Positions 7,130 through 62,635 of a stretch of DNA of 64,000 nucleotides are shown here, piece after piece. Each line of letters opens with the position of its first letter. Positions within the stretch are counted from its first letter, which is position 1. The stretch lies in the NCBI GenBank assembly GCA_019752125.1, contig JAIEMM010000002.1:3062-67061 (forward strand). The letters run 5' to 3'. The DNA comes from Patescibacteria group bacterium (GTDB lineage Bacteria > Patescibacteriota > Minisyncoccia > Phycocordibacterales > SBAW01). The notes under the pieces were generated by a model that was given only the letters and a program-made list of their open reading frames with translations, was not told the DNA's origin and did no database searches. The translations under genes and the position numbers were made by a program.

Positions 7130-7573
7130 ATGAAATATACAGATTTACTTAAAACAGAACGCCCTTGCCCTTTTGATAATCCCAAACAGGAGGACGTTGT
7201 GTCTGAAAATGAAACAGCATACCTTACGTATGCCCTTGCCGCATATCATATTGACCAATTGCTCGTAATACCGAAACGTCATGTTACCCATTTTGACGAT
7301 ATGACAGAGGCTGAACTAGCAGACTGCCATGCGCTCCAAAAACTCGGGTGGCATATACTACGAGAATTAGGCCATAGCGGAGTGAGTTTTCTGCTTCGCG
7401 AAGGAGAGTCGACCGGCAAAAGCATACCGCACCTACATTACAATTTGATGCCTGACACCAAACTCGGCTATATGGCTCCAGGAGCTAAAGAGGAACGCAA
7501 CGTGATGAACGCGGAAGAAGTTGCGGCTACTATGGCACGACTTAGAGACGGTTTGGCCAGACTCCCTCAATAA
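7130..7573 (+). CDS. HIT family nucleotide hydrolase/transferase
   Basis: HIT-like histidine triad variant IPHLHYNLMP at the C-terminus; size and layout of HIT proteins. Confidence 0.55.
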   Translation: MKYTDLLKTERPCPFDNPKQEDVVSENETAYLTYALAAYHIDQLLVIPKRHVTHFDDMTEAELADCHALQKLGWHILRELGHSGVSFLLREGESTGKSIPHLHYNLMPDTKLGYMAPGAKEERNVMNAEEVAATMARLRDGLARLPQ

Positions 7574-7574
7574 C

Positions 7575-23986: not shown

Positions 23987-30880
<6,894 letters not shown>

Positions 30881-41783: not shown

Positions 41784-42383
41784 TCAAAAATGACAATACG
41801 TCCTTCTGTGTACTTCGGAGATTCCAACGCGCGCGATGATATCCCGATGTCTCTTCGTCCCGTAGCCTTTATGGATTTCGAATCCGTATTCTGGGTACTG
41901 TTTGCCCAACCTGCACATCAAACGATCTCTCGAAACTTTTGCAACAATGGAGGCTAGTGAAATAATTGGCTCTGTCGCGTCGCCTCTAATAATGGTTTGT
42001 TGACTATATTCTTCTGGCGCAGAAAGTAATCCATCGAGTAGCACGTGGACGCCTTTTGGTTTTGGAGCAAGAGAACGGACGCCGCTAAAAATTCCCTTTC
42101 TTACAACTTTAGTAATACCGATGTCATCGATCATCGTATGTGATCCGAAGCGCACGCAAAAATTTATAGTTCCTGCTTTCTTTAACTCAACAGCAATTTC
42201 ATACAACTCCTCCCTTTTCTTTTCAGTAAGTTGCTTTGAATCGTTGATTCCAGGGAAGGCTTTTTTGATATTAAAACCAACAGGGACTGAGACAATTCCT
42301 ACAGAAACTGGCCCCGCCAATGGCCCCCTGCCCGCTTCATCCACCCCAACAAGAATCTTTTTCACCTCTAGAGTATAATCCAA
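41784..42383 (-). CDS. rnhB: ribonuclease HII
   Basis: ILVGVDEAGRGPLAGPV catalytic N-terminus. Confidence 0.85.
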   Translation of the reverse strand: MDYTLEVKKILVGVDEAGRGPLAGPVSVGIVSVPVGFNIKKAFPGINDSKQLTEKKREELYEIAVELKKAGTINFCVRFGSHTMIDDIGITKVVRKGIFSGVRSLAPKPKGVHVLLDGLLSAPEEYSQQTIIRGDATEPIISLASIVAKVSRDRLMCRLGKQYPEYGFEIHKGYGTKRHRDIIARVGISEVHRRTYCHF

Positions 42384-42385
42384 AC

Positions 42386-45367
42386 ATGGCTGCGAAATTT
42401 ACCCACCTTCACGTCCATTCGCACTATTCTCTCCTTGGCGCACTGCCAAAAATCCCTGCCCTGGTTGCTATGGCAAAAGAGCGCGGACTCGAGACACTGG
42501 CCCTTACGGATATCAACAACCTCTACGGAGCGATTGAGTTTATAAAGGAATGTAAAAGCGCTGGTATTAAACCCATAGTTGGTGTTGATGTTGAACTTGA
42601 GACAAACGGACGTCTTATCCTGCTCGCAGAAAACGAGATGGGGTATAAAAATTTGCTTGCGCTTGTTACCGACTCATATTTTAGAGAGGCAGAAGGCTCG
42701 CCAGTCGTGACACATGAGATGCTGCGCGCACGTAAAGAAGGGATTATTGCCATTACGCCGCCTCGCCTTAAAGAGACGAAGGAGCTGCGAGAGATATTTG
42801 GTGCAGACAATTTATATACAGATGTAGCGCTCCATGAGATTTTCTATCTGAACCCGGAAGACCGTCGCGCATGGGAGACAATGCGAAAAATTGCACACAA
42901 CGACAACGCTGAGGGCAATAACGCATACCTTGAAGAGGAAGATTTCCACTTCCCTACCACTGCCGAAATGGAAGAGGAATTTTCAGAAGAACAGTTGGCA
43001 AAGACAATTGAAATTGCCGCACGCTGCAATCTTGAGCTTAAACTCGGCTCATGGGTATTCCCGGATATTCCTCTGCCAGAAGGCTCAACGTATGACCAAG
43101 AGCTTCGACGTTTGATTGAAGAAGGTTTACAGAAACTTGGGCTCGGCACTCCTGTCGTACGCGAACGCATAGAGTACGAATACAAAATTATTTGCGACAA
43201 AGGTTATTCTCCATACTTCCTTGTAGTGGCCGACCTTCTTAACTTCGCACGTACGAACGGCATTTTGACTACTATCCGCGGTTCGGTCGCAGGCTCGATG
43301 GTTACGTATGTCATCGGTATCACCAACGTGAACCCGCTTGAGTACAAACTGCCCTTTGAACGCTTTTTGAACCCGCAGCGTCCCAGCGCCCCCGATATCG
43401 ACATGGACTACGCCGACAACAGACGCGATGAAATGATCGATTACGTCCGCAGAAAATACGGCGAGGCCCATGTCGCACAAATTGGTACCTTCGGTACGAT
43501 GCTTGCGCGCGGCGTCGTCCGCGATGTTGCCCGTGCCTTGGGTTATCCATATGGACTTGGCGACCGTATCGCAAAAGAAATCCCCATGGGCAGCCAAGGC
43601 TTCCCCATGACCCTTGAACGCGCGCTCGTCGAGAATCCAGTTCTCGCAAAGATGTGTAAAGCAGACCCAGAAATGCAAGAAGTTATTGAGCTGGGTAAGA
43701 AACTTGAAGGATGCGCTCGACACATCTCCGTGCATGCTGCCGGCGTAGTTATTTCTCCGAAACCGCTTGTTGAATACACACCGCTCCAAAAAGATCCTAA
43801 GGGCGGCAAAATTATTACTCAATACGACATGTACTCAGTTGAAGAAGCCGGCTTGCTTAAATTCGACTTCCTCGGCATTCGAAACTTGGCAATTCTTGCG
43901 CACGCAGTGGAGCTTGTAGAAAAAATTACAGGTGAACGTGTCGAGATTGAACGTATTCCGGTTGATGACCAGAAAACATTCGAAATGCTTGCGCGCGGCG
44001 AGACAGAAGGAACCTTCCAGCTCAACGGCAGCGGCATGACACGCTACCTAAAAGAGCTCAAGCCAACGACAATCCATGACATCAACGCGATGGTGGCATT
44101 GTTCCGTCCAGGCCCGATGGAAACGATTCCTCAATATATTGAACGCAAACACAACCCGCATCTCGTCCACTATTTGGACCCTCGCATGAAAGATTATTTG
44201 GAGAACTCGCACGGCGTTATCGTATACCAGGATGACGTTCTTCTTACCTCTATTACGCTTGCGGGATATTCGTGGCTTGAAGCAGACACGCTCCGCAAGG
44301 CTATGGGTAAGAAAATCCCTGAAGTAATGGAGAAAGAAAAAGAAAAACTTCTTAAGGGCTTTGTAGAATATGGGAAACTCTCTCCTTCTCTTGCAGAAAG
44401 ACTGTGGAAGCTTATCGAGCCATTCGCCGCGTATGGTTTTAACAAAGCGCACGCTGCGAGCTATGGAAAAGTAGCGTATCAAACGGCGTACATGAAAGCG
44501 CACTACCCTGCGCCCTACATGGCCGCAGTACTTACGGCAGAGTCCGGCAACCTCGACACAATCTCTGTGATGGTTGCCGAATGTAAGCGTATGGGTATTG
44601 AAATTTTGCCACCCGACATTAACGAAAGTTTCGGCGACTTCACGGTGGTTACAAATGCAATTCGCTTCGGTCTCTATTCTATAAAAAACTTCGGGCAGGG
44701 CGTGGCAGATGCGATCATCGCAGAGCGGAAAGCAAACGGGGCATTCATTTCGCTTTCTGATTTCCTTACGCGCGTCAGCTCGACCAGCTTAAATAAAAAA
44801 GGTCTTGAGTCACTCATCCAGTGCGGCGCACTCGACTCGTTTGGCGAACGCGGGCAAATGCTCGCAAACTTAGAGCTCCTTCTGCAATACCACCGCGATG
44901 CAGGCACAGAGCAATCACAGGACTCTTTGTTTGCAGGGTTGGAGAGTAACAGCTCCGATATTCAACTAAAAGACGCTCCAGCTGCAACTACTCCAGAGCG
45001 TTTGGTGTGGGAAAAAGAACTATTGGGTCTCTACGTTTCTGGCCATCCACTAGACCAACATCGTGAAAAACTTTCCAAGCGCCCGATGACTATTGAACAA
45101 ATGAAACAGCGCATCATGCCTGGCATGACCGCAGTTGCAGCTGGCATGATAGAAGATGTCCGCACACTCCTGACACGCGGCGGCGACCAGATGGCATTTA
45201 TAAAAATCGCTGACTTCGATGGCTCTATCGAAGCAGTAGTATTCCCAAAAAGTTTCGAAGAGTACAAAACTATTCTCAAGCCCGATACCTGCATTGCCCT
45301 CAAGGGTCGTCTTTCAAACCGCAATGGCGAGCTTTCCATGGTTGCCGAGGCACTCAAAGCGCTGTAA
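42386..45367 (+). CDS. dnaE: DNA polymerase III alpha subunit
   Basis: PHP domain (HLHVHSHYSLL), polymerase core and OB-fold. Start taken at ATG 42386 (MAAKFTHLHVHS). Confidence 0.9.
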   Translation: MAAKFTHLHVHSHYSLLGALPKIPALVAMAKERGLETLALTDINNLYGAIEFIKECKSAGIKPIVGVDVELETNGRLILLAENEMGYKNLLALVTDSYFREAEGSPVVTHEMLRARKEGIIAITPPRLKETKELREIFGADNLYTDVALHEIFYLNPEDRRAWETMRKIAHNDNAEGNNAYLEEEDFHFPTTAEMEEEFSEEQLAKTIEIAARCNLELKLGSWVFPDIPLPEGSTYDQELRRLIEEGLQKLGLGTPVVRERIEYEYKIICDKGYSPYFLVVADLLNFARTNGILTTIRGSVAGSMVTYVIGITNVNPLEYKLPFERFLNPQRPSAPDIDMDYADNRRDEMIDYVRRKYGEAHVAQIGTFGTMLARGVVRDVARALGYPYGLGDRIAKEIPMGSQGFPMTLERALVENPVLAKMCKADPEMQEVIELGKKLEGCARHISVHAAGVVISPKPLVEYTPLQKDPKGGKIITQYDMYSVEEAGLLKFDFLGIRNLAILAHAVELVEKITGERVEIERIPVDDQKTFEMLARGETEGTFQLNGSGMTRYLKELKPTTIHDINAMVALFRPGPMETIPQYIERKHNPHLVHYLDPRMKDYLENSHGVIVYQDDVLLTSITLAGYSWLEADTLRKAMGKKIPEVMEKEKEKLLKGFVEYGKLSPSLAERLWKLIEPFAAYGFNKAHAASYGKVAYQTAYMKAHYPAPYMAAVLTAESGNLDTISVMVAECKRMGIEILPPDINESFGDFTVVTNAIRFGLYSIKNFGQGVADAIIAERKANGAFISLSDFLTRVSSTSLNKKGLESLIQCGALDSFGERGQMLANLELLLQYHRDAGTEQSQDSLFAGLESNSSDIQLKDAPAATTPERLVWEKELLGLYVSGHPLDQHREKLSKRPMTIEQMKQRIMPGMTAVAAGMIEDVRTLLTRGGDQMAFIKIADFDGSIEAVVFPKSFEEYKTILKPDTCIALKGRLSNRNGELSMVAEALKAL

Positions 45368-45379
45368 TCTTTGCTATAT

Positions 45380-46594
45380 ATGGAAGAACGCGACCACCGA
45401 ATCATTGGCAAGGAACTAGACCTGTTTACATTTTCTGACCTTGTCGGATCAGGTCTCCCACTTTGGACACCCAAAGGTACAACATTTAGAACTGAGCTGG
45501 ATACATTTATCTGGGAAATGCGCGAAGCGCGTGGATATGAACGCGTAACTATTCCCCACATTACAAAGCGCGACTTGTACGAAAAGTCGGGACATTGGGA
45601 CAAATTTGCTGAAGATCTTTTTAAGATCACATCACGCGAAGGTCGCGAATATGCGATGAAGCCGATGAACTGCCCGCACCATACGCAGATTTTTGACCGC
45701 CACCCTCACAGCTACCGTCAGATGCCGCAGCGCTATGCGGAAACTACAATGGTGTACCGCGATGAACAGTCGGGAGAACTCGGCGGCCTTACCCGCGTGC
45801 TTTCGATCACTCAAGATGACGCACACGTTTTCTGCCGTACAACTCAAGTACGCGAAGAATTCCTAAAGATCTGGGACATGGTGGATGAATTCTACAAAAA
45901 ATTCGGATTCACCTTGCGTGTCCGCCTTTCTTTCCGCGACCCAGCCGCACCTGAAAAATACATCGGCACTCCTGCTGTATGGGATGCTGCAGAAGCAGAG
46001 CTTCGCAGCCTCGCAGAAGAACGCGGCGCAGATACATTTGAAGGACCCGGCGAAGCTGCTCTGTACGGACCAAAGCTCGACTTTATGGCAAAGAACGCAG
46101 CGGGCCGCGAATGGCAAGTTGCAACTATCCAGCTCGACATGAACATTCCTGAACGCTTTGACCTCACCTGCATAAACGAAAAAGGAGAAAAAGAACGCAT
46201 CGTGATGATACACGCCGCTATCGCAGGTTCTCTTGAACGCTGCGCAGCAGTGCTTCTTGAACACTTTGATGGAAAACTTCCACTCTGGCTCTCGCCTGTA
46301 CAAGTTGCCATCCTTCCTGTTGGCGAAGGTCACCACGCATACGCAAAAGAAGTGTTTGCTCAGCTAAAAAGTGCTGGTATCCGCGCAGAACTTTCTATGG
46401 ACGAATCTCTCGGCAAGCGTATCCGTGGAACAAAAGAGCAGCGCGTTCCCTGCTTTATCGTTGTCGGTGACAAAGAAGTTGCTGAAGGCACGATAACGGT
46501 TGAGAACAACCGCAATGGTGACAAAGCTACTGTCTCAATTGCAGATTTTGTCGCGCCAACTCTCGAGCGCATCAAAGAACGCGCAAATATTTAA
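45380..46594 (+). CDS. thrS: threonyl-tRNA synthetase, catalytic plus anticodon-binding domains only (no N-terminal TGS/editing domains)
   Basis: Begins directly at the catalytic-core motif RDHRIIGKELDLF, with class II motifs (KPMNCPHH, FRDP). 404 aa against about 640 aa for canonical ThrRS. Confidence 0.8.
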   Translation: MEERDHRIIGKELDLFTFSDLVGSGLPLWTPKGTTFRTELDTFIWEMREARGYERVTIPHITKRDLYEKSGHWDKFAEDLFKITSREGREYAMKPMNCPHHTQIFDRHPHSYRQMPQRYAETTMVYRDEQSGELGGLTRVLSITQDDAHVFCRTTQVREEFLKIWDMVDEFYKKFGFTLRVRLSFRDPAAPEKYIGTPAVWDAAEAELRSLAEERGADTFEGPGEAALYGPKLDFMAKNAAGREWQVATIQLDMNIPERFDLTCINEKGEKERIVMIHAAIAGSLERCAAVLLEHFDGKLPLWLSPVQVAILPVGEGHHAYAKEVFAQLKSAGIRAELSMDESLGKRIRGTKEQRVPCFIVVGDKEVAEGTITVENNRNGDKATVSIADFVAPTLERIKERANI

Positions 46595-47510
46595 CGATAG
46601 AATTTTGAACCCGCTTCACTATCAATAGATAGGCTCCGAGCGCTGCCCATAAAAACAAGAACGCCCAGTACGCTATCGTCCCACCCATTCCAAGCTCAAG
46701 ACCTGTGTATGGTATTTGAGAAAGCGTAACAACAGGAGTAGGTAGTGGCACATACATCGGCGCTTCATATCTATAGTTATAGTGTGGACGATAATTGTTG
46801 TACGCAATATTATTTTGCAATAAGTTACAGGTTGGATACACACCGGCATATCCTTGCGGACATCCTGTCGCAAAACTGTACGAGCCGTTTTGATAGTTTG
46901 AATACGAGTTAGTGGTCGTATTTGTTGTGTTATACGAGCTGCTGTTCGTCGTGTTGTTGGTTGTGTTGCAACTGTTGTTTATACAGGAATTGTTAGTTGC
47001 TGTTGTTACCACAACACAGTTAGGAAACGTGCCGGTTGTGCCCGCAGGACAAAGGACTGGTGCAGGTGGAGGCACGGGAGGAGCGACCACAGGAGAAACT
47101 GAGCTTCCGCCTCCACCACCGCCTCCGCCCACACTGCCTCCCCCAACACCGCCGCTGCCGTCATCACCGCTTCCACCGCCACCAGCGTCGCCTCCGCCGC
47201 CACAGCATCCGCCGCCGCTGCCAGCGTCACCTCCACCGTCGCCCCCAGCACCGCCACCTGCGCCGCCATCACCTCCAGCGCCCCCGCCGCCATCGCCACC
47301 ACCATCGCCTCCTCCACCGCCATCTTGTGCGTGAACAATAGTCCCGTGGAAAAATGCGCTTCCAAGCCCATGGCCAGCAAAGTTAGTTACAAGCGCTGCA
47401 ATAAAAATAAAGCCGGTTGCCAATACAACTCCTCCGATAATCCGTAATAAATGCGACATATAGGTAATGATTTTATTAATAGTGTGCTGAATATTTGATG
47501 AGGTTTTCAT
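46572..47510 (-). CDS. Gly-rich secreted protein with C-terminal IPYTG sortase sorting signal
   Basis: Signal peptide ending VHAQD, then a long GGGD/GGGA low-complexity tract and an N/T/S/Y-rich region. C-terminus SQIPYTGLELG, hydrophobic helix, KRVQN. Confidence 0.6.
   Translation of the reverse strand: MKTSSNIQHTINKIITYMSHLLRIIGGVVLATGFIFIAALVTNFAGHGLGSAFFHGTIVHAQDGGGGGDGGGDGGGGAGGDGGAGGGAGGDGGGDAGSGGGCCGGGGDAGGGGSGDDGSGGVGGGSVGGGGGGGGSSVSPVVAPPVPPPAPVLCPAGTTGTFPNCVVVTTATNNSCINNSCNTTNNTTNSSSYNTTNTTTNSYSNYQNGSYSFATGCPQGYAGVYPTCNLLQNNIAYNNYRPHYNYRYEAPMYVPLPTPVVTLSQIPYTGLELGMGGTIAYWAFLFLWAALGAYLLIVKRVQNSIVKYLRVL
47040..47330. repeat. low-complexity GC-skewed (ggcgg)n coding repeat
   Basis: Encodes the poly-Gly/Asp/Ala tract of the IPYTG protein. 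Confidence 0.6.
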
Positions 47511-47534
47511 AAAAAATCGGAGGAGGCTTTCGCC

Positions 47535-48050
47535 TTACCCCCGATACTGCTTTGCTTTGAGCTGTGTACATCCCTGGTCGCACAGAACCAGGTCGAGAAT
47601 ACATTCTCGTGCGCCAAGTTTGATACACCAGTTGTTGCAGACTTCAGGACGGAAGATTGCATAGAAGCGCGCTTCCCCGCCTGTGTGGCGCTGTGCGGTG
47701 TACATCGTCATCCTTCGAGATGCATTGCCCCAGGCCGCAAGGTCGGATGGGTCCACGATAACGTTTGGTACCTGTTGAGTGGCGCCGAACATCATACGTG
47801 TCACCTGCCAGTTCTCGAAAACAAGAGACTGGGTCCCTTGATTTTGCTGGACCTTGCGGCGCAGCTCATCGGTGACATCCGGGTCTCGTGCAAAGAGATC
47901 CCCGAAGGCACGTAGTGCATCATCGAGCGTTCCTCTGTACGGATCGCCGCCAGGCTTACGCCAGTGGAAGAACCTATCGTCGGCCAGCACAGGGTTGAGC
48001 CCAAGCGTTGCAGCCGCCACACCCGCAAGGAGAAAATTACGTCGCCTCAT
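47535..48050 (-). CDS. secreted protein with twin-arginine (Tat) signal
   Basis: N-terminal MRRRNFLLAGVAAATLGL. About 57% GC. Last gene of a three-gene minus-strand unit. Confidence 0.45.
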   Translation of the reverse strand: MRRRNFLLAGVAAATLGLNPVLADDRFFHWRKPGGDPYRGTLDDALRAFGDLFARDPDVTDELRRKVQQNQGTQSLVFENWQVTRMMFGATQQVPNVIVDPSDLAAWGNASRRMTMYTAQRHTGGEARFYAIFRPEVCNNWCIKLGARECILDLVLCDQGCTQLKAKQYRG

Positions 48051-48052
48051 GG

Positions 48053-48763
48053 CTAGTTACTCCCATGAACAAAGTAGAAGAGCGAAGCTTTTTCTCCGTT
48101 TAGGATGCGCTGCTCAACGCGGCTAACGCCAGGGGTGTCGCTTGGCCTCGCAATCTGCGTGCTGGGTTTTCCAGCAAACCGTCCACGAATGATGGGCGCG
48201 TTGTACTTTGTTGGAATGTTCAACGCCACAGCAGGTGTAAACGAAAGATGTTTCCCTTCGCCGTCGACCAATTGCGTAAGTGGTGCACGAGGCAACACAA
48301 GCGCTACCTGACCATTCACCACCGGCCCACCTTGAGCCTTTCCATGAACCGAAGCGACCACCTTTGACCAACCAGGCACATCAGGCTGAACCGGAAACAT
48401 GCCGAGGCAGTATCCATTACCGATCAAGACTGGTAGATGCGAAGGTAAGCGTTTAGGGTTGACGTTCAGATGAAATGTCACTTCCATCGAACCGAAGTAC
48501 CGACCGACAGTTTTATAGAGCGTTTGCCCCGCCTCATTACCTTGCGCGGTGATGGCGCTATACGCACGCGCTCCATCGCCGACAACAAGAACATCGATGT
48601 GGAAATTTCTTGCCGCATCGTAATGAACGTCCTGGCCGGGTGTGCACACAGGAACTGGCGAGGATCCTTGGTCGGCAACAAACGAACTCCCTGCACCCGT
48701 GCCTGTAGAGACACACGCACCAAGCAAGAGCACTACGCACAATGACATCATGAGATTTCTCAT
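48053..48763 (-). CDS. putative lipoprotein
   Basis: Signal peptide with lipobox-like LLLGAC. About 57% GC. The next gene starts 3 nt downstream. Confidence 0.4.
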   Translation of the reverse strand: MRNLMMSLCVVLLLGACVSTGTGAGSSFVADQGSSPVPVCTPGQDVHYDAARNFHIDVLVVGDGARAYSAITAQGNEAGQTLYKTVGRYFGSMEVTFHLNVNPKRLPSHLPVLIGNGYCLGMFPVQPDVPGWSKVVASVHGKAQGGPVVNGQVALVLPRAPLTQLVDGEGKHLSFTPAVALNIPTKYNAPIIRGRFAGKPSTQIARPSDTPGVSRVEQRILNGEKASLFYFVHGSN

Positions 48764-48890
48764 GGTTTTTCCTTTCGTATGAAGATCTGACTGAAGACAT
48801 CATGACCTTTTATGTGTGAAGGACTGATGAGCGTATAGTGCAGGTAAGAAAAAGACCGTACCTCGCCGGGTGGCGAAATACGGTCTGTAG

Positions 48891-49367
48891 TTATTGGCGT
48901 TGCACTTTAGGCAACGAAGCTGGTCTATTCGGCAGATTGCCTGGCGAAGGGACCATGTCGATGACGTGGCTGCTGTTGGCGTAGGCGGCCATACGGTCGC
49001 GTGACATGACCCGCCCGGCATCATCGGTACACCATTCAAAGATGTGCCCTTTATTGAGCCAGTGTCCGCTGATGCAGAAGCGATCGTACGCCTCCTTCGT
49101 CTCGCTGTGTTGCAGATTAGCGGCATTGACCTGAACACCGTTCGCGTCGTAGATATTGAGTGTCACGACACCTGCCCTAGTCTGGTGGATGTTGTACCAC
49201 CGTGGATCAGGACAGTTGGTCGGCGTTCCCGGTTGCTGAAGATGCTTCAGACACGCCGGGTTTGTGGGGTTTGCCCCGCAATCTGCCTGCTGCGCACTGC
49301 TCACAGAAAAACTCAAGGCAAGCAGAAAGGCGGCAAGCGTTAGCACGAGAAACTTCTTACACATCAC
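48891..49367 (-). CDS. secreted Cys-containing protein
   Basis: Sec signal peptide (LALSFSVSSAQQ), six Cys. Elevated GC. Confidence 0.4.
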   Translation of the reverse strand: MMCKKFLVLTLAAFLLALSFSVSSAQQADCGANPTNPACLKHLQQPGTPTNCPDPRWYNIHQTRAGVVTLNIYDANGVQVNAANLQHSETKEAYDRFCISGHWLNKGHIFEWCTDDAGRVMSRDRMAAYANSSHVIDMVPSPGNLPNRPASLPKVQRQ

Positions 49368-49444
49368 AAGGTACTCCTTTTGGCTGCATCTTCCTTCACT
49401 CCACTACACGTGGATTGCGAAGACATAGCCGACCATCTCAAATA

Positions 49445-50083
49445 TTAATTAGAGACGATCGAATATGCCCCTACAAAATCTGCGGTGACAATGAACCGAT
49501 TACTTTTAGTTGAGAACGAATCGCACGTAACAAGCGTCAGGTGTTTTCCTTGAGGAGTTAGCTCAATAGAATCTTGGTTTGCATCCGCAACCTTTACTCC
49601 GACGACGCTGTATTGGTAATCAATATCCGATGAATACACGTGGATTATTTGTCCGGTCTTCAGTTTCTGAATATCATCGAATGCTTTATATGCTTGGTTA
49701 TGAACTACAGGTAGATAACTGCTGTGTCCAAACAAAAGCACTGTCCCATCAACACCAAGCTGTGCAGATGTTGGATAGCGGACCGAGCCTTTCAACAAGG
49801 CTTGGTCGAGCACCTCAACATCAGTCGAGACTGGATTGGCTATGGTTGCATCAAGACCAACATCTTTTGCAACCACACGCACAGGCATCTGAGGCGCCGA
49901 TACAGTCGCAGGATTTTCCTGAGTATCTGTTATTGGCCCATCTATAACCTGCGGATGTATAGGGTCAGGAGTTACACCAACACTGCGCAGAAAGACAAAC
50001 GTCAGAATGAATATAGCGATGAACGCAAGCGCAAATGCGCCTCGACGTTCACCAACTTCTCTAATTGCTCCTTTATGTGTCAT
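49445..50083 (-). CDS. sortase (transpeptidase)
   Basis: N-terminal TM anchor, catalytic His (LLFGHSS), TLVTC active-site Cys motif and conserved Arg (RFIVTADF). Confidence 0.7.
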   Translation of the reverse strand: MTHKGAIREVGERRGAFALAFIAIFILTFVFLRSVGVTPDPIHPQVIDGPITDTQENPATVSAPQMPVRVVAKDVGLDATIANPVSTDVEVLDQALLKGSVRYPTSAQLGVDGTVLLFGHSSYLPVVHNQAYKAFDDIQKLKTGQIIHVYSSDIDYQYSVVGVKVADANQDSIELTPQGKHLTLVTCDSFSTKSNRFIVTADFVGAYSIVSN

Positions 50084-50103
50084 AGCGTTTGTCGCCCAGA
50101 GTT

Positions 50104-51204
50104 TTATGCGCGTGCGCGGTTCTGGATCTGCGACATGATGAACGAGTCGATTGCGTCATGTCCGCGCTGAGCGTCAGAAACTTTCGCGGATGCCGGAGCA
50201 TATGTGAGAGCCTGCGCAACATCATCCGATCGGTTCTGTCGAACCGCGGCCTGATGTTGCTGCGGCATATGCGAAGCGTGCGACACTTCAAAGTTTTTCG
50301 CAGGTTCGGTAACTTTTTCACCGAAAAGGAAAGCCATGAATTTATTTTGCACACGCTTTACTACGATGAGGTACGCCGCAAAGAGGCACCAGAGTATAAG
50401 GAAGCCCCAGTATGCAAGTGTGCCCCAAAAACCAAGCTCAAGACCAGTATACGGGATTGATGAAAGGCTGATGTATGGGTTAGTCACACCCGAAGAAGTG
50501 ATGATGACTGGTGGTGTATATGGCTGTGAGTACGAATAACTTGGGTACGAGTAGCTTGGATATGAGTAGCTTGGATATGAGTACGACGGACTCGTATATG
50601 TAACTGTCGGAGAAGGATTTGTGATAATTGTGTTTGCAGTATTGCAGTTATTCGTGCCGACACAGTTGCTGTACGTGTATGTGTAGTTGCTGTTTGTATT
50701 TACATTGTTATAACCACCTCCGCCGTACGATGGGTATGAGTATCCGCCACCGTAGTACCCTCCGTATCCACCGCCTACTGAATAACTTGAACCGTAGAGG
50801 TAACTGTCAGAAGTGTAGGCGTAGCCTGTGTCTGGAGTATATGTATACCCATAGTCCGGAGTGTATGAGTAGCCAGAATCTACAGCATAGCTGTAACCAG
50901 CATCTGGTGTGTAGCTGAAAGAAGAGTCTGGAGTATAGCTGAAAGAAGAGTCTGGAGTATAGCTGTAGGAAGCGTCTGGAGTGTATGAGTAGCCCGAGTA
51001 GTCACAACAACCACCGTTATAACCGTAATCAAAGCTACCACTGTATCCACCACCATAGTCTGGAGTGTATGAGTAGTCACCTCCGTAGTCCTGAGCGTGA
51101 GCTGTGTGCACAAGGCCGAAAGAGAACGTCATTGCAAGTGCAAGTACGACGAAAGAGCCGAGCAAAGCAATGCTGAATGAATTGTCTTTATATGTTGCGT
51201 TCAT
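50104..51204 (-). CDS. Tyr/Ser/Thr/Pro/Asp-rich repeat surface protein with internal IPYTG sorting signal and an ~80-aa C-terminal tail
   Basis: Signal peptide ending AHAQD, then YSYTPD and SYSYP repeats. SSIPYTGLELG, a TM helix and KRVQN are followed by ~80 extra residues, which is unusual for sortase substrates. Confidence 0.6.
   Translation of the reverse strand: MNATYKDNSFSIALLGSFVVLALAMTFSFGLVHTAHAQDYGGDYSYTPDYGGGYSGSFDYGYNGGCCDYSGYSYTPDASYSYTPDSSFSYTPDSSFSYTPDAGYSYAVDSGYSYTPDYGYTYTPDTGYAYTSDSYLYGSSYSVGGGYGGYYGGGYSYPSYGGGGYNNVNTNSNYTYTYSNCVGTNNCNTANTIITNPSPTVTYTSPSYSYPSYSYPSYSYPSYSYSQPYTPPVIITSSGVTNPYISLSSIPYTGLELGFWGTLAYWGFLILWCLFAAYLIVVKRVQNKFMAFLFGEKVTEPAKNFEVSHASHMPQQHQAAVRQNRSDDVAQALTYAPASAKVSDAQRGHDAIDSFIMSQIQNRARA
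50226..50268. repeat. CCGATCGGTTCT..CGAACCGCGGCC-family 43-nt element (copy 2), in-frame in the surface-protein tail
   Basis: ccgatcggttctgtcgaaccgcggcctgatgttgctgcggcat. Matches the copy at 7692-7734 inside the PMM gene at 39 of 43 positions. Confidence 0.65.
50889..50990. repeat. tandem 24-nt coding repeats (agctgaaagaagagtctggagtat x2, plus a degenerate third)
   Basis: Seen directly; encodes the SFSYTPD repeats. A second short tandem (gagtagcttggatat x2) lies at about 50550-50579. Confidence 0.6.
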
Positions 51205-51363
51205 AATTCTTTCTTTTATTACTAATCGACCTTGTGCAGGTCATTTTATCCACAAACACCGGAGTGTTTATGGACAAGTGATGCGCACAAGTTACTAAAG
51301 AACGTTCTCTTTGTCTAAGGAGCAGGTGCCAAATCACACCTGCTCCTTGGAGTCGTCCGGCTG

Positions 51364-52140
51364 TTACCGGTCGACCTTAATCTCGGCCACGGTGGGTGCC
51401 TTGCCGAGCAAGTAGCCCGAGCTGTCGGCGATCGCGACGTTCTTGCCATCGCGATCGCGGACGATGTAGAGCTTTTGGCCGCTCTGGCAGTCCTTGAGCT
51501 CGGAGCCGATGGTGGCGAAGTTGAATTCCTTCAACCCGTTCATCTTCTGCTTGCTCTTCACGCCGACGCGGTGCTTGCCCTCGACCCCTGCCTTCTGGCA
51601 GTCGACGAGGGCGCCCTTGACCAGGAGTTCCGGACTCACATCGACTCCGGAGAACCTGGCGATGGCCGCCTCGACCTCGCCGATCGGAGCGTTCAGGACA
51701 TTGCTCTCGCTTCCCTCCTTGAAGGCGCCGGCCAGGGCCTCGATGCTCACGCCAGGCGTGAAAACACGAAACGGCTGGGCCGGAACCTGCACAGCAGGCG
51801 CCTGAGCGGCGACCTGCGGAGCCGGCACTGTCGGCCGCTGAGCAGCCTTGTCCAGTTCGTACTGCCGACGGAGCTCGTCCAGGTCGCCCTGGTTGAGCAC
51901 GACGGCCCCCGGCGCTGTTCCTGCAACCGGTACGAGGTTGGACACAGACGGAGCCGAGACCGTGGAGGTGGGCGCATCGTTGCGCTTGCACCATCCGGTA
52001 CCTGGAGTCGCCGGCTTTCCATCCGGCGTGCACCGATAGTGCTGCGGCGACGGAGCCGATCCGTAGAACTGAGCCTGTGCCGAAGTGGCGGCGAACAGGA
52101 ACGCAGTGGCCAAGACGGCCGAAACGATACGATTCAACAT
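51364..52140 (-). CDS. GC-rich secreted protein
   Basis: About 62% GC. Signal peptide (AATSAQAQF) and Pro/Ala-rich linker. A 12-bp stem hairpin (aaggagcaggtg...cacctgctcctt) lies downstream at about 51318-51351. Confidence 0.4.
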   Translation of the reverse strand: MLNRIVSAVLATAFLFAATSAQAQFYGSAPSPQHYRCTPDGKPATPGTGWCKRNDAPTSTVSAPSVSNLVPVAGTAPGAVVLNQGDLDELRRQYELDKAAQRPTVPAPQVAAQAPAVQVPAQPFRVFTPGVSIEALAGAFKEGSESNVLNAPIGEVEAAIARFSGVDVSPELLVKGALVDCQKAGVEGKHRVGVKSKQKMNGLKEFNFATIGSELKDCQSGQKLYIVRDRDGKNVAIADSSGYLLGKAPTVAEIKVDR

Positions 52141-52329
52141 GATAATAGGCCCTCCTTAGGCCAGATGAAGCTCGAGATTGAGCTGTTTCAAAGATTTCGC
52201 TTCACCCAAAGCTTCATAGAATATCCAGAGAGCTTTGGTACGATGTAGCTATTATAAATCTCATTACAACCTTTGTCAAGTCCAGCCAGTAACACAACAA
52301 AAAGCCTTACTTGACAAGTATTTTTAACT

Positions 52330-53481
52330 ATGGTAGTTTCCCAGCATATGACAGACACACATGCAGCAGATCAGCACACTGGGCATGAAGGCACAGTTTC
52401 ATTTAAAGACCGTGTACTCCGTGCGGTCGCTATTCTAGGCCTTATTGCCCTACTCCTCTTGGGTGCCTGGGGTATTATCCAAATCGCATTTACGTTGTAT
52501 GGGTTCCTTGGCAACACTGCTCCCACATCTCCAGCAACCGTCACTACAAAAACTGAGCAGATGGTTGTAACAGTTCCTGGAAACACCCAGTCTGGTACAC
52601 CATTCACTCTTTCATTCACTCACCTGTCTGCGCAGGCAGGCCAAAACGCATCAGGAAACTACGCGTATCAATTCTCATACTCGTGTGCAGATGGACTAAG
52701 CGTACAGGCGCCTCTTCCAACCGGTGGCACTCAGACAGTTGCATGCAACACTCCGTTTAACTACACAGGTGCATCCTCACAGGTTCAGCTCATCGCAACA
52801 CTAAGTGGATCCGCACCAGTAACCACCACCTTCACAGTTGCTGCAAAAAACTTGGCAACAGGTGCAATTACCGCAAATGCGAATGCAAATACTACAGTGA
52901 AGCCTATGCAGAAAGCGGCGACCCCTGCTGTGTCAAAACCCTCAACATCAAAACCAGGCACAACATACGTTCCTGCAAAAACTACAGCACGGACTTTGTA
53001 TGGCTCACCTGACCTTGCAGTAACGATGGGCAGCATCACAAACTCAGGAGGTCTCTACTCGGCACAGTTCACAGTCCAGAACGTCGGCACCAATGTCGCA
53101 CCATACGGATGGACGTTTAACGCGGCGCTTCCAACATCGCCTGTATATACATACCCATCAAACCCACAGCAAGCACTTAACCCTGGCGACAAGATCGTCT
53201 ACACATTGAGCTTCACCAAAGGACAGGCCGTGTACTCATACGGCGCGTCGTACGGATACGGAAATACTTCATACCAATATCCTTCTAACTGCGGCTACAC
53301 CGCCAACTACACATACAACGGCGTGTACAACTACCCTGGTGCTTCGTACACATGCAATATGAATAACTACTACAACGGTTACAACTACGGCACGAGCTAC
53401 GTAACTGTTACAGTTGATCCAAACAACTACGTATACGAAAGCTCAGAAGCCAACAACAGCGCGACTGCGACTGTGTACTAA
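52330..53481 (+). CDS. membrane-anchored CARDB-domain surface protein
   Basis: N-terminal TM, Thr/Ala-rich stalk, and a CARDB-like domain (PDLAVTMGSITNSGG...VQNVGTNVA...[24 protein letters not shown]). Confidence 0.55.
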   Translation: MVVSQHMTDTHAADQHTGHEGTVSFKDRVLRAVAILGLIALLLLGAWGIIQIAFTLYGFLGNTAPTSPATVTTKTEQMVVTVPGNTQSGTPFTLSFTHLSAQAGQNASGNYAYQFSYSCADGLSVQAPLPTGGTQTVACNTPFNYTGASSQVQLIATLSGSAPVTTTFTVAAKNLATGAITANANANTTVKPMQKAATPAVSKPSTSKPGTTYVPAKTTARTLYGSPDLAVTMGSITNSGGLYSAQFTVQNVGTNVAPYGWTFNAALPTSPVYTYPSNPQQALNPGDKIVYTLSFTKGQAVYSYGASYGYGNTSYQYPSNCGYTANYTYNGVYNYPGASYTCNMNNYYNGYNYGTSYVTVTVDPNNYVYESSEANNSATATVY

Positions 53482-55601
53482 ATATCGAGGTTTGCGTTGC
53501 GTGCGTTCGACTGGATGAATGACTTGCGCGACGGCACGTCCTCGCCCATCAAGATATCGAAAATGCGGTCTGCGTCTGCCGCGTCATCAACATTCACTTG
53601 CTTCAAGACGCGGTTTGCAGGGTTCATTGTTGTCTCCCAAAGTTCCTCTGGGTTCATTTCTCCAAGACCTTTGTAGCGTTGGATGCGGATCTTGTTCGAG
53701 CGTTTGCTGTTTGTCTCCGCAGGACTCTCTGCGTCGGTCTTCGGCTCCGCAGCCGAGTCCTGCTCCGACACTTCACCGGTGGTTACTTCATCATCACCTT
53801 CTGTCTCCACCTCCTCATTTCCTATGAGTTTATTTTTCTCTTCGTCAGAATAGACATAGTTCACCTGCTTTCCCTTCTGAATCTTGTATAGAGGCGGTTG
53901 TGCGATATATACAAAACCACCATCAACAATTGGGCGGAAATGGCGGAAGAGCAACGTCAAAAGAAGCGTGCGGATGTGTGCGCCGTCCACGTCGGCATCG
54001 GTTGCGATAATGATCTTGTGGTAGCGAAGTTTGCTGATATCGAAAGTTTCGCCAATAGCTGTACCAAGAGCCACAACCAAGTTTTTGATCTGTTCTGAGC
54101 CAAGCATCTTGTCGAGGCGTGCACGTTCAACGTTCAAGATTTTTCCGCGAAGCGGGAGAATAGCCTGCGTGCGGCGGTCGCGACCCATCTTTGCCGAGCC
54201 ACCTGCCGAGTCTCCTTCCACCACGAAGAGTTCTGATTCTGAAGCATCTTTGCTTTGGCAGTCTGCGAGCTTACCTGGCAGCGTCATGCCTTCAAGTGCA
54301 CCCTTGCGGAGCACTGAATCTTTTGCAGCCTTAGCAGCTTTGCGGGCCTTAAGAGCAAGAATAGATTTCTGCAAGATAGCGCGCGCATCGTCTGGATTTT
54401 CTTCCAAGAATTCGCTAAATGCATCTGCAAAGATATTTGCAACTGCACTCTGCGCTTCAACGCTGCCGAGCTTGCCCTTTGTCTGGCCTTCGAACTGAAT
54501 TTCGCGGAGCTTTACAGAAACCACTGCAGTAAGACCTTCAAGCACGTCATCACCTGTGAGGTTTTCCTCGCTTTCTTTCAATACATTATTTTTGCGGCCG
54601 TAGGCGTTGAGCGTACGTGTAAGCGCAGTCTTAAAGCCCGTGATATGTGTACCGCCTTCTGAGTTGTAGATGTTGTTCGCAAACGGGAATACGCGCGACG
54701 ACATGTCGTCTGCATACTGGAGGGCAATTTCAACAGCCACACTGTCTTCTTCTTTGCCACCTGCTGGAGTGTATTCCTTTTCAATATAGAAAATATTTTT
54801 GTGAACTGGCTTTTGGTAGCGGTTGTAGAACGAGATAAGCGAGCGCAACCCACCTTCAAAGTAAAAGGTTTGTGATGGGCAGTCGCCGAGCTCGTCTCGG
54901 ATAAACAATGCTTCACCTGGTTTTGGCAATTTTGCTTCGCTCTTTCGTGCATCAATGATGGTGATGCGGAGGCCCTTAACCAAGTACGCCTGTTCACGGA
55001 GGTGAGAGACGATTTTGTCGAAGTTGTATTCGATCCCAGCTGTAAAGATTGAAGGGTCTGCCTGGTATGCAGTAACTGTGCCGTGCAATTTTGATGAGCC
55101 GAGTCTTTTTACTGGAGCCTTTCTCTTGCCGAGCGCATACTCCTGCATGTGTACGCCGCCATCGCGGTGAACTTCTGCACGGAGGTAGGTTGAGAGTGCG
55201 TTAACTACCGATGCGCCCACGCCGTGGAGACCGCCAGATACTTTGTAGCCTTCGCCGCCGAATTTACCGCCGGCGTGAAGAGTCGACATGATAGTTTCAA
55301 GAGCTGAAACTTTTGTTGTCTTGTGAACGTCAACAGGAATACCGCGACCGTTATCGGCAACGCGGATAAACGGAGCTTCATCTTTTCCGCCCGGCAAGAT
55401 AACGACCTCAATGTCGTTAGCAAAACCACCCATGGCTTCGTCGCGTGAGTTGTCGAAGATTTCCCAGATAAGGTGGTGGAGACCATCGGGACCAGTGGTA
55501 CCGATGTACATGCCGGGACGGCGGCGTACTGCTTCCAACCCTTCAAGAACTGTAATCGACGATGCGTCGTAATTTGTTTTTTTAGTTTTATCAGCAGCCA
55601 T
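53478..55601 (-). CDS. gyrB: DNA gyrase subunit B
   Basis: GHKL ATPase ([18 protein letters not shown]), TOPRIM (EGDSAGGS) and C-terminal [20 protein letters not shown]. Acidic insertion near the C-terminus, encoded by nested palindromes at 53719-53763. Confidence 0.9.
53719..53763. repeat. nested inverted repeats in-frame in gyrB
   Basis: gcaggactc...gagtcctgc enclosing ctgcg...cgcag. Encodes part of the [20 protein letters not shown] insertion. Confidence 0.5.
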
Positions 55602-56147: not shown

Positions 56148-58025
56148 TTATCGGATTTCGAAGCCTTTTGCTTTTAGTGCCGAGTACACCTTTTCCATGG
56201 CAGTATTTGCTTCAGAATCTTCAAGGGTTTTGTCGAATGACTGGAAAATCAAGCGGAATGCGAGTGAAGTTTTGTCAGCTTTTTGGAAGCGGTCGAAGAG
56301 ACGAACGCTTTGAAGCATTCCGCCAGCTGGCGGATCCCCTGCTTCTTCCTCAATCATTTCTACGACCGCATTTTCATCAGTCCCCTCTGGAATCCAAAAG
56401 GCTACATCGCGAATAATGTACGGATATTTAGAAAATGGTTTGTATTGCTGTGCCCCAGAGATTGGGTAGCTTTCGTACTGACCAGGCACAGCCTCTGGCG
56501 CGTGCATCTCAAGCGGCTCTTCAACAGCCGGTTCTTTTTCTGTGACGATTCCGACCATCATTGCCTCCTTTCCGTCTTTCCAGACTGTTCCGATCTCAAA
56601 CAATTTTATTTCTTTGAGTCCAAGCAAATCTTTATTAGGGATATTTTTCTTAAGTGCATCGTTCAATCCCGAAATAAGGCTGGTGCGAAGATATGGTTTT
56701 ACTCCATCAACTTTGTTAAGTACTGTTCGCTCGCCTGTTTCCGCAAAGACACTGGTAAAGACTTCGGAGTAGCCCCCTGCCATCAATTCCTCACGCACTT
56801 TTTCTGCCACATAGAAGCCAACATTAACTTCCGGCTGTTTTGAAAATGGCGGAAGTTCTACTGGCAGGACTTTGTCGTAGCCAATGATGCGGCCAACTTC
56901 TTCAACAAGATCTTCTGCGATTACGAGGTCCAGGCGTTCAAATGGAGGTTGTACTTCAAATACTCCATCTTGTTCTTTATACGGGAGGCCCAAACGTTGA
57001 AATACATCGGCGATATCTGCACCGGTGAGAGATGTGCCAAGAATTTTATTTACTTGTTCGACCGTTACTGAAACGTATGTTTTCTGCTGAGGCGCTGGAT
57101 ACACATCAACCACTGAGACTACCTCCCCACCCATATTCATATCCGGACGCTGCATCAATTCGATCATTCCATTAATGCCGTGCATGCAAAGCTCCGGAGA
57201 AATAACCTGCTCAAAGCGCGACGACGCGTCGGTGCGCAGCTTGAGAGCTGCTGCGGTTTTGCGTGTTGTAACACCATCAAAGTTTGCTGACTCAACAATG
57301 ATATCTACGGTGTCCGTAGAAATACCTGACGGCATGCCACCTTTTACTCCAGCCAGACCTATAACCTCATTTGAGTCAGTAATAACAAGCATTGATTCTT
57401 TTAGATCATATTCTTTGCCATCAAGCGCAAGCATTTTTTCACCATTTTTCGCAGCACGAACCTCGATGGCGTAGCAAGGTCCGACCTTGCCGTCGCCTGA
57501 CAAGGTCGGACCTTGCCCAAGCTTCCTTGCATCGAAGGCATGAAGTGGCTGGCCGGTGTTAAACATGACAAAGTTTGTTGCATCTACAACGTTGTTGATA
57601 GAGCGCTGTCCTATTGCTTCCAGTCTTTCTTGCAGCCATTTTGGTGAAGGTCCGACCTTCACACCCTTAATGTGTGCAGCAATATAGCGTTTGCAGAGTG
57701 GCGTATTTAGAGCGACGGAAACAGTTGCTTCTCGAACGTCCCCTTGCTGGCCTGCAGCGAGAGAAGCAACTGTTTCCGAAGCGACAAAGGGATCGTGAGC
57801 GAAAGGTGTTTTTAAAATAGCTGAAAGCTCTTTTGCAATACCACGATGCGACAAACAATCGTGCCCACGGTTTGCTGTGATTTTTACATCAAGCACCTCA
57901 TCCCCACCTACTGTATCTACGCCATCTATTTCAAACGCATGAAATGTCAAAGCATCGGAAAGAGCTTCTGCCTTTGGCAGAGGAGCATCAAAGAATTTAT
58001 CGAGCCAGAGTTTTGAGACTTTCAT
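56148..58025 (-). CDS. pheT: phenylalanyl-tRNA synthetase beta subunit (short; lacks the N-terminal tRNA-binding domain)
   Basis: B3/B4 and B5 regions (ITANRGHDCLSHRGIAKEL, FDARKLGQGP). Contains two in-frame GGTCCGACC-family elements, at 57474-57516 and 57644-57662. Confidence 0.85.
   Translation of the reverse strand: MKVSKLWLDKFFDAPLPKAEALSDALTFHAFEIDGVDTVGGDEVLDVKITANRGHDCLSHRGIAKELSAILKTPFAHDPFVASETVASLAAGQQGDVREATVSVALNTPLCKRYIAAHIKGVKVGPSPKWLQERLEAIGQRSINNVVDATNFVMFNTGQPLHAFDARKLGQGPTLSGDGKVGPCYAIEVRAAKNGEKMLALDGKEYDLKESMLVITDSNEVIGLAGVKGGMPSGISTDTVDIIVESANFDGVTTRKTAAALKLRTDASSRFEQVISPELCMHGINGMIELMQRPDMNMGGEVVSVVDVYPAPQQKTYVSVTVEQVNKILGTSLTGADIADVFQRLGLPYKEQDGVFEVQPPFERLDLVIAEDLVEEVGRIIGYDKVLPVELPPFSKQPEVNVGFYVAEKVREELMAGGYSEVFTSVFAETGERTVLNKVDGVKPYLRTSLISGLNDALKKNIPNKDLLGLKEIKLFEIGTVWKDGKEAMMVGIVTEKEPAVEEPLEMHAPEAVPGQYESYPISGAQQYKPFSKYPYIIRDVAFWIPEGTDENAVVEMIEEEAGDPPAGGMLQSVRLFDRFQKADKTSLAFRLIFQSFDKTLEDSEANTAMEKVYSALKAKGFEIR
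57474..57516. repeat. GGTCCGACC-family palindromic element (in-frame in pheT)
   Basis: gcaaggtccgaccttg-(11 nt)-caaggtcggaccttgc. Encodes LGQGPTLSGDGKVGP. A smaller related palindrome, gtgaaggtccgaccttcac, lies at 57644-57662. Confidence 0.65.
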
Positions 58026-62586: not shown

Positions 62587-62635
62587 TGACCAAGGTCCGA
62601 CCTTGCCATCCTCTGGCAAGGTCGGACCTTGGTCA
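62587..62635. repeat. GGTCCGACC-family element: perfect 22-bp-stem hairpin in the prfA-rpsB intergenic region
   Basis: tgaccaaggtccgaccttgcca-tcctc-tggcaaggtcggaccttggtca. Overlaps the prfA stop codon by 3 nt. Confidence 0.7.

Follow-up and report, generated by a model that had tools for sequence, protein, structure and literature searches.

The 64-kb stretch of DNA analysed here (the window), from a contig of a Patescibacteria group bacterium, contains a sortase gene situated between the genes of two low-complexity secreted proteins with a common sorting module. All eight open reading frames (ORFs) that an earlier inspection of the letters alone (the sequence-only reading) had assigned to this locus were recovered at the same coordinates by an ORF scan. 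The sortase (gene E; 49445-50083, minus strand, 212 aa) is recognized by the Pfam model PF04203 and by PDB and fold matches. Gene F (50104-51204, minus strand, 366 aa) encodes a signal peptide, a Tyr/Gly/Ser-rich low-complexity ectodomain, a PYTG module and a cytoplasmic tail, and 20 nucleotides separate its stop codon from the sortase start. Gene A (46572-47510, minus strand, 312 aa) encodes a Gly/Asp/Asn-rich ectodomain with Cys motifs, a PYTG module and a short tail. The scan thus bore out the placing of F and A on either side of the sortase. Gene H (52330-53481, plus strand, 383 aa), which diverges from the sortase operon, encodes an N-terminal transmembrane (TM) anchor and a CARDB-type core, and the remaining genes, B, C, D and G, encode accessory secreted proteins. 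On the minus strand the order from 5' to 3' is G, F, sortase, D, C, B and A; gyrB (53478-55601) flanks the locus on one side and a convergent thrS/dnaE pair (42320-46594) on the other.

A sortase outside the curated classes

The sortase matches PF04203 over residues 75-202 with 63.6 bits (cutoff 26.6; E 1.9e-17). His120 (codon at 49724-49726, minus strand), Cys187 of the TLVTC motif (49523-49525) and Arg196 (49496-49498) are invariant in the alignment of 23 homologues, and these catalytic residues align with the GH, TLITC and KRY segments of Bacillus anthracis SrtA (PDB 2kw8, E 1.7e-10). The TLVTC sortase proposed from the letters at this position is therefore upheld by the Pfam match, the motif and the triad alike. 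A cytoplasmic N-terminal stretch is followed by a TM helix at about residues 14-34 and an extracytoplasmic catalytic domain. The AlphaFold2 model (pLDDT 82) likewise predicts a helix at 14-34 and a beta-barrel that fits the eight-stranded sortase fold, and the top 50 Foldseek matches of this model were all sortases (E about 2e-10 to 1e-8), with classes E, A, D and C nearly equal.

None of the NCBIfam cutoffs for classes A to F was reached by the sortase, which scored 33.8 bits against a cutoff of 160 for class C, 32.6 against 160 for E, 29.3 against 165 for D, 17.4 against 166 for F and 13.6 against 153.75 for B. The generic sortase model TIGR01076 gave 37.7 bits (cutoff 39.35), more than every class-specific model. 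Taken together, alignment and predicted structure indicate a genuine sortase with an intact catalytic triad that lies outside the curated classes. An NCBI protein named 'sortase [Patescibacteria group bacterium]' is 100% identical to it, and its relatives number more than 1,600. The closest species-representative sortase, from Candidatus Adlerbacteria RIFOXYC1_FULL_48_26, shows 92% identity, and all 80 sortase-bearing species loci belong to metagenome-assembled genomes of Patescibacteria/Paceibacteria. The cytoplasmic N-terminus of the sortase differs between the main clade and a sister clade whose substrates have long tails (see below).

The sorting module shared by F and A

The C-terminal region of F reads ...LSSIPYTGLELG, followed by a TM helix of 24 residues, KRVQN and 79 further residues, whereas that of A reads ...LSQIPYTGLELG, followed by a TM helix, KRVQN and only the nine residues SIVKYLRVL. 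The module of F (NPYISLSS-IPYTG-LELG, TM helix and KRVQN; 50344-50484, minus strand), delimited by motif scan, family conservation and census, comprises IPYTG at 50443-50457, the TM helix FWGTLAYWGFLILWCLFAAYLIVV at 50359-50430 and KRVQN at 50344-50358. In A (LSQ-IPYTG-LELG, preceded as VVTLSQ; minus strand), IPYTG lies at 46701-46715, the TM helix at 46617-46688 and the tail KRVQNSIVKYLRVL at 46575-46616. The pattern S-x-IPYTGLELG, TM helix and KRVQN that had been noted in both proteins is plainly legible in the translations, KR follows a 24-residue hydrophobic stretch in each, and 66 nucleotides of the module DNA are 71% identical between A and F (repeat family D6). A motif-plus-TM search had been suggested as the means of defining the substrate set. 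When all six frames of the 64 kb were scanned for [LIVMFYA]PxT[GAS] followed by a hydrophobic stretch, F and A were the sole matches, neither of them more than 3.5 kb from the sortase, so the observation is real and not a product of chance.

The module proved to be a family in its own right. An exhaustive search with a hidden Markov model (HMM) of the module against 1.84 billion cluster representatives returned 892 matches (E<=1e-3), of which 329 had E<=1e-10 and 136 had E<=1e-30, and in the top 150 of the 892 the aligned module almost always reaches the C-terminus of the protein. The family set comprises 162 members, 158 of which have a PYTG-type motif, and position-specific conservation was derived from 154. 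Over about 45 residues the consensus is PY[VI][TS]LSx-[V>A,T,I,L,M]PYTG-L[DE]LG-TM(YW..FL.LWC..AAYL)-K[RK]VQN, or, after PYTG and in full for the 154 members, L-[DE]-L-G-[PF]-x-G-T-x-x-Y-W-x-F-L-x-L-W-C-L-x-A-A-Y-L-I-x-V-K-[RK]-V-[QH]-N. The P, Y, T and G of the motif are conserved in 154, 153, 152 and 154 members, respectively, the TM helix is nearly invariant at Y15, W16, F18, L19, W22, C23, A27 and Y28, and the basic pair that follows it is K (146) or R (4), then R (90) or K (58). The sorting motif is thus no bare pentapeptide but part of a conserved module to which the TM helix also belongs, and neither Pfam nor NCBIfam has a model for it; for A and F no family was found in these databases at E<=0.1, and the curated LPXTG-anchor HMMs were unmatched.

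The residue before PYTG is V in 127 family members, A in 11, T in 8, I in 3-4, L in 3 and M in 2. The non-canonical signal of the sequence-only reading thus holds as xPYTG, whereas IPYTG itself (3 against 127 for VPYTG, among the 158 of 162 members with the motif) is a minority spelling of a signal dominated by VPYTG.

Linkage of sortase and module

In a forward test we collected 80 species loci through their sortase, with ±10 kb each, and in a reverse test 80 metagenome loci through the module profile. An xPYTG ORF was present at 61 of the 80 species loci and at 54 of the 55 with at least 5 kb downstream, the exception being a contig that begins at the sortase, in a lineage in which F lies upstream. 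Within 1.26 Mb there were 72 motifs, every one on the sortase strand and none on the other, with one PYTG gene in 50 species loci and two in 11. Conversely, a sortase on the same strand was found in 22 of 22 loci with at least 6 kb upstream, its end 1.3-4.5 kb upstream of the motif. From these sequence comparisons the linkage of sortase and module is essentially obligate; since the loci are phylogenetically related, the counts do not represent independent events.

The surroundings are conserved too. By tblastn, gyrB was recognized at 71 of the 80 species loci, H on the opposite strand at 63, the sortase at all, a slot of varying content after it, the PYTG gene at 61, thrS at 57 and dnaE at 50, and this arrangement is kept down to a sortase identity of about 45%. 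The order gyrB-H-sortase-slot-PYTG-thrS-dnaE is a core arrangement that was inherited vertically, and the idea of a strain-specific module gives way to a core of H, sortase and PYTG gene, with gyrB on one side and thrS/dnaE on the other, in a set of 80 Paceibacteria species. Such a constant place next to housekeeping genes argues for a basic role in the envelope, which is at least as much indicated as the host attachment that had been suggested for the locus, and which we regard as speculation.

The cytoplasmic tail

As had been seen, the sorting signal of F is internal: the tail after KRVQN (50107-50343, minus strand) is composed of 79 residues, with a conserved proximal KF.AFLFG, a variable linker and the 17-residue terminal motif DAIDSFIMSQIQNRARA (50107-50157, minus strand; family consensus [DE].ID.F[IV][ML][SA]QINRAR). 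Counted from K283, 84 residues lead to the end of F, and 14 from the same position to the end of A. This tail is not an oddity of the F gene. In the orthologous loci with the same F-type and A-type genes (L001, sortase identity 86%; L002 and L006, 67%), the F-type tails have conserved KRVQNKF..FLFG and a conserved last ~17 residues, D.ID.FI[ML][SA]QI..R..A, around a variable middle, and the profile search revealed further proteins ending ...IDSF[IV][ML]SQINRAR. Altogether 108 of the 162 family members end with D.F[IVLM]..Q[IVL].[KR], and PYTG motif and C-terminus are a median of 96 residues apart. Tails are present at 61 species loci, and short-tail paralogues of the A type at 11 two-gene loci. 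The tail of F is no artefact, since its final 17 residues fit a motif shared by more than 100 relatives, and the alignments indicate that it is a selected part of the substrate.

In sixteen distant loci (sortase identity 45-49%; L062-L082, e.g. L065:11721-14015 and L081:11901-15191), which form the sister clade, the module is followed by 260-290 residues. Here the tail begins with GYS.YEGF[RK]SFA...L[ST]I[DE]DIVKGLSR and continues through a Pro/His-rich linker into a conserved helical domain of about 106-130 residues with the pattern DVRGF.AALL.GDR...ALDDAYRA.IDGT...SYS.G.TGAKLALTRAL. This domain gave no significant sequence match in the PDB (best E 0.72) and no match in Pfam (best 0.014, in 3 of 11 members).

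The pattern I-D-x-F-I-x-x-Q in the terminal tail motif resembles D-I-P-x-F-L-x-x-Q, the C-terminal peptide of FtsZ, a likeness that serves as a lead only; there is no ftsZ in the 64-kb window with which to compare it.

Palindromic elements

An imperfect palindromic element lies in frame in the linker of the F tail (50209-50274; 22 codons, SHMPQQHQAAVRQNRSDDVAQA) and is 86% identical over 66 nucleotides to a second copy at 7675-7740. The predicted hairpin has -21.7 kcal/mol (z = -5.2) for the copy in F, and z = -3.1 for the second copy. The in-frame repeat reported earlier is thus real and accounts for 22 of the 79 tail residues, but its size is about 57-66 nucleotides, with a palindromic core of about 44-46, instead of 43. 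It is not, however, the origin of the tail, which relatives without the element possess as well. Two loci, L001 and L005, have the element in their tails and L004 has the core only, while it is absent from L006, whose tail has 70 residues, and from the loci beyond. This distribution indicates that the variable linker already existed when a recent ancestor acquired the element.

The two copies are the only full ones in the window. The second (plus strand) is in frame in an ORF for a phosphomannomutase (PMM)/HAD-like protein (7521-8381), at about residues 52-74, exactly between the Pfam-matched segments 22-46 and 75-284. Rickettsia palindromic elements (RPEs) reportedly occur in frame within protein-coding genes in the same way, and the present element is like them in being a short imperfect palindrome in frame in two unrelated ORFs, F and the PMM/HAD-like enzyme. 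Unlike RPEs, it is represented by two copies only in 64 kb and has no sequence relation to them, and its mobility is only conceivable. A second, unrelated palindromic family, CAAGGTCCGACCTTGCC...GGCAAGGTCGGACCTTG, was found at 23043-23095, 57475-57527, 57647-57659 and 62591-62643, with at least two copies inside the long ORFs 21861-23633 and 56148-58025.

Ectodomains and signal peptides

The signal peptide of F (51094-51204, minus strand; residues 1-37) ends with AHA before QD, an AxA-type signal peptidase I site, and the translations agree with the statement that the signal peptides of F and A both end in HAQD. AHA occurs within the first 110 residues of 34 of 75 PYTG proteins. The ectodomain of F is dominated by Tyr, Ser and Gly (0.23, 0.19 and 0.14) and contains tandem repeats with a period of 24 nucleotides that encode octapeptides of the YSYTPD type (50806-50997, minus strand; repeat family D1). 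Orthologues of F with the same architecture are present in L001, L004 and L006-L009. The ectodomains of PYTG proteins in general are rich in Gly, Tyr, Ser, Thr, Asn and Pro and evolve fast, and some of them include CARDB, PKD or Ig-like domains.

Three small motifs, namely AHAQD where the signal peptide ends, a GGCC doublet-Cys and C..NNC.NT, are common to F and A, whose low-complexity ectodomains are otherwise dissimilar, and recur in the L001 and L006 orthologues. In the A-type proteins AHAQD is located about 20 residues past the hydrophobic segment, which is unusually distant for a signal peptidase site.

The divergent protein H and the accessory genes

The CARDB domain ascribed to H holds at 27.9 bits (cutoff 22.7), though as a partial match to profile positions 59-100. 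Homologues of H adjacent to the sortase and on the opposite strand were found by tblastn at 63 of 80 species loci and 41 of 80 metagenome loci. In 62 homologues, collected by blastp and aligned, the TM helix and core residues 223-295 and 363-376 are conserved, and no Lys is invariant; for the latter reason H was rejected as an acceptor for pilus or isopeptide linkage. H has no sorting signal.

B (47535-48050, minus strand, 171 aa), C (48053-48763, minus strand, 236 aa), D (48891-49367, minus strand, 158 aa) and G (51364-52140, minus strand, 258 aa) are found by tblastn at only 10, 3, 3 and 3 of the 80 loci, the matches of G being partial. B starts with the twin-arginine-like MRRRNFLLAG, which agrees with a [ST]-R-R-x-F-L-K-like twin-arginine pattern and makes a candidate signal for twin-arginine translocation (Tat), and its C-terminus has four conserved Cys. 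It has nine homologues only (55-100% identity, none named), and the eight that were read all start with RR (M[QK]RR or KRR) followed by hydrophobic residues, e.g. SRRSFLTGG and KRRSFLFGS, in keeping with the Tat-type signal that had been proposed. A regular-expression scan of the 64-kb window for TatA-like proteins found none, in a sample too small to be informative on the genome; some Paceibacteria are reported to have TatA and TatC (PMC9166423). The AlphaFold2 model of B, built from nine homologues, is unusable (pLDDT 54), so we make no claim as to its fold, and the score of B with the NCBIfam model for MHFG family PEP-CTERM proteins (16.4 bits, cutoff 100) was treated as noise. The lipoprotein assignment of C is weak, for its lipobox-like LLGAC is present but not conserved in the homologues of L004 or L006, and the Cys-richness of D amounts to 6 Cys in 158 residues.

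B, C and D had also been described as GC-rich, as had G. This is strongly so for G, which has the highest GC content of the locus genes (0.64), and correct but modest for B, C and D (0.53-0.56, compared with 0.49 in the window). The GC content at third codon positions is 0.59 in B, 0.52 in C, 0.64 in D and 0.80 in G, compared with 0.37 in the sortase and 0.47-0.50 in thrS/dnaE, and the contrast between accessory and core genes is also seen in L004 and L006. The slot from the sortase to the first downstream PYTG gene (the equivalent of 47535-49367 in the window; loci L004-L083; median 1.2 kb) contains non-homologous, lineage-specific secreted or membrane proteins and in 56 of 60 species its GC content exceeds that of the remaining locus (Wilcoxon p = 4e-11; median +4.3 points). 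B, C, D and G thus appear to be lineage-specific secreted occupants of a variable, GC-enriched slot. Because the GC excess is clade-wide, their composition does not point to DNA newly acquired by this genome only; the excess may have arisen by repeated acquisition or from a constraint on composition.

Next to gene A, the 3' end of thrS (45371-46594, plus strand) overlaps the 3' end of A by 23 nucleotides (46572-46594). The threonyl-tRNA synthetase of the window is short (407 aa), and its L001 orthologue consists of the catalytic and anticodon-binding domains only; a longer form of 580-635 aa is found in some related loci (L046, L065, L073 and L081 were compared). Elsewhere in the window, a single ORF of 2,297 aa (23987-30880, minus strand) contains by Pfam all of the Rpb2 domains followed by all of the Rpb1 domains, an apparent rpoB-rpoC fusion.

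Interpretation of the locus

We give a probability of roughly 0.65 to the explanation that the locus encodes the one 'housekeeping' sortase found throughout Paceibacteria, along with F and A as the substrates dedicated to it and with the conserved CARDB-type membrane protein H. Its observed basis is the sortase fold with its triad, the anatomy of the module, a nearly obligate linkage and conserved tails into one of which an element was inserted, and from their sequences A and F are likely substrates of the sortase. F and A would be exported by the Sec system, with their signal peptides removed after AHA, and the conserved C-terminal module of PYTG, TM helix and K[RK]VQN would hold them in the membrane. 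There the membrane-anchored sortase would, by analogy, recognize xPYTG and cleave between Thr and Gly via Cys187, the low-complexity ectodomain would be transferred to an amine of the cell wall, and a stub of Gly, TM helix and tail would remain in the membrane. We infer where cleavage takes place, what accepts the ectodomain and what the tail may do, taking the cleavage steps from characterised sortases.

The canonical mechanism leaves a conserved TM helix and tail unexplained; they imply contacts of a specific kind and some cytoplasmic function. Most plausibly the tail serves to position or gate the substrate for sorting before it is cleaved. It may instead act afterwards, as a remnant peptide that reports processing, by analogy with the C-peptide of streptococci. 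Going further, the sortase might install the ectodomain on the wall by cleavage at PYT/G and leave the Gly-TM-tail part to act in the cytoplasm, the whole being a sortase-coupled transmembrane device. The conserved helix at the end of the tail (in the sister clade, the domain of ~130 residues) might then signal that the surface has been assembled, or couple sorting to machinery in the cytoplasm, the divisome for example. We hold this to be improbable, but if true it would be an unrecognised link of envelope assembly to the cell interior in reduced-genome bacteria with few classical signalling systems.

Several points weigh against the housekeeping-sortase explanation. Cleavage of F and A is so far an extrapolation from characterised sortases and not a biochemical or proteomic result, and as the enzyme belongs to none of classes A to F, the specificity of a characterised class cannot be transferred to it. 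Neither F nor A matches a curated LPXTG-anchor model in Pfam or NCBIfam. The TM helix is nearly invariant and the tails measure 14 to about 250 residues, whereas canonical signals have non-conserved TM segments and tails of about 5-10 residues, and the folded tail domain of the sister clade is easier to explain in a protein that is intact, at least part of the time. Much of the synteny evidence comes from one clade and one conserved neighbourhood and is not independent. Finally, the loci were scanned over ±10 kb, so other sortases or substrates may exist elsewhere.

Some of these points would be expected if the F-type proteins were stable type I transmembrane proteins that are not constitutively cleaved. 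The PYTG-TM module would then serve for docking or oligomerisation, possibly on the sortase or on H, the tail would couple the ectodomain to a cytoplasmic partner, and the sortase would act conditionally (as a release or switch) or on another substrate. A nearly invariant TM helix is typical of specific helix-helix contacts and foreign to canonical sorting signals, and conserved tails, with a domain of ~106-130 residues in 16 loci, as well as the missing match to LPXTG-anchor HMMs, fit this idea. However, exactly the residues that a sortase needs, P, T and G, are invariant (154, 152 and 154 of 154), the motif lies just outside the TM helix with K[RK] after it, the module is obligately linked, on one strand, to a sortase whose catalytic residues are intact, and short-tail paralogues such as A resemble ordinary substrates. 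We consider this alternative unlikely, and it keeps what weight it has mainly through the folded cytoplasmic domain of the sister clade.

It is much less probable that a class C-like, polymerising sortase joins the ectodomains of F and A into a fibre, or onto H, and not to peptidoglycan. xPxTG motifs that start with I or V are typical of streptococcal pilins, class C gave the best of the class-specific scores, yet far below its cutoff (33.8 against 160 bits), and H, sortase and PYTG protein are co-conserved as in a minimal pilus locus. But the locus has one sortase only, the low-complexity F and A lack CnaB/Ig pilin domains, H offers neither a sorting signal nor, in 62 homologues, an invariant Lys, and the fold matches classes A, C, D and E equally. 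Least credible of all is the view that the long tail of F is an artefact, with an ORF lengthened by a palindromic insertion or by the loss of a stop codon, and with its true signal at the C-terminus, as it is in A. The share of element-derived residues (22 of 79) and the nine residues that follow KRVQN in A may recall such a history, but the terminal motif, which lies downstream of the element, is kept in frame by more than 100 proteins that mostly lack the element, the element-free tail of L006 is 70 residues long, and the PYTG motif lies a median of 96 residues from the C-terminus. The comparative data (terminal motif and element-free tails) refute this view.

Significance

The ultra-small Patescibacteria make up a large share of bacterial diversity, and their envelopes and surface proteins are almost uncharacterised. 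The housekeeping-sortase explanation defines for them a clade-wide pair of sortase and substrate with a specific signal, and because this signal, [V/I]PYTG-L[DE]LG followed by a conserved TM helix, is searchable, the sorted surface proteome of Paceibacteria becomes predictable. The module also supplies a concrete peptide for enzymology, e.g. YISLSSIPYTGLELG, and its ~900 cluster representatives are an unannotated C-terminal domain family that merits a curated model. Conserved cytoplasmic tails are unusual for sortase substrates and raise the question of a functional remnant. Sortases are common or enriched in the candidate phyla radiation (PMC6744442), but in the open-access literature we found no description of a PYTG signal, of tailed sortase substrates, or of the substrates or motif of Patescibacteria sortases.

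Comparison with known systems

The enzyme of the window resembles the housekeeping sortases of classes A and E (SrtA of Staphylococcus aureus and B. anthracis, SrtE of actinobacteria) in its membrane anchor, its His-Cys-Arg triad and its TLxTC motif, and as with these there is one general sortase per genome region with a substrate gene adjacent. It differs from the class A/E systems in that it scores below every class-specific NCBIfam cutoff, and its substrates in that they match no LPXTG-anchor HMM. Like those of the LPXTG and LAXTG systems, the substrates combine a signal peptide, xPxTG, a TM helix and basic residues. Here, however, the signal is [V>A,T,I,L,M]PYTG with Tyr fixed at the 'x', followed by L[DE]LG and a TM helix conserved in sequence, and it is not terminal, since a tail with a conserved terminal motif or a folded domain follows it.

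In Streptococcus gordonii the sensor SGO_1180 reportedly detects the C-peptide that is left after processing of adhesins by SrtA (summarised in PMC11326707). A remnant of sorting embedded in the membrane can therefore be functional, which would provide a rationale for selection on the TM helix and tail in our family. The streptococcal remnant described there (PMC11326707) is a short, generic signal read by a histidine kinase, whereas in Paceibacteria it would retain a conserved motif or a whole domain.

The distribution of enzyme and signal also recalls the pairs exosortase/PEP-CTERM, archaeosortase/PGF-CTERM and rhombosortase/GlyGly-CTERM, which were defined by comparative genomics and in which a clade-restricted enzyme is tightly co-distributed with a homologous tripartite C-terminal module (signature motif, TM helix and basic cluster) that can be recognized as a domain. 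Unlike the enzymes of those pairs, the present one is a true sortase (PF04203), and CTERM domains end a few residues past the basic cluster, whereas the PYTG module runs on into a conserved tail in the cytoplasm. In short, the working principle of the Paceibacteria locus is closest to that of the housekeeping sortases and their LPXTG substrates, and its genomic logic resembles that of the enzyme-CTERM pairs.

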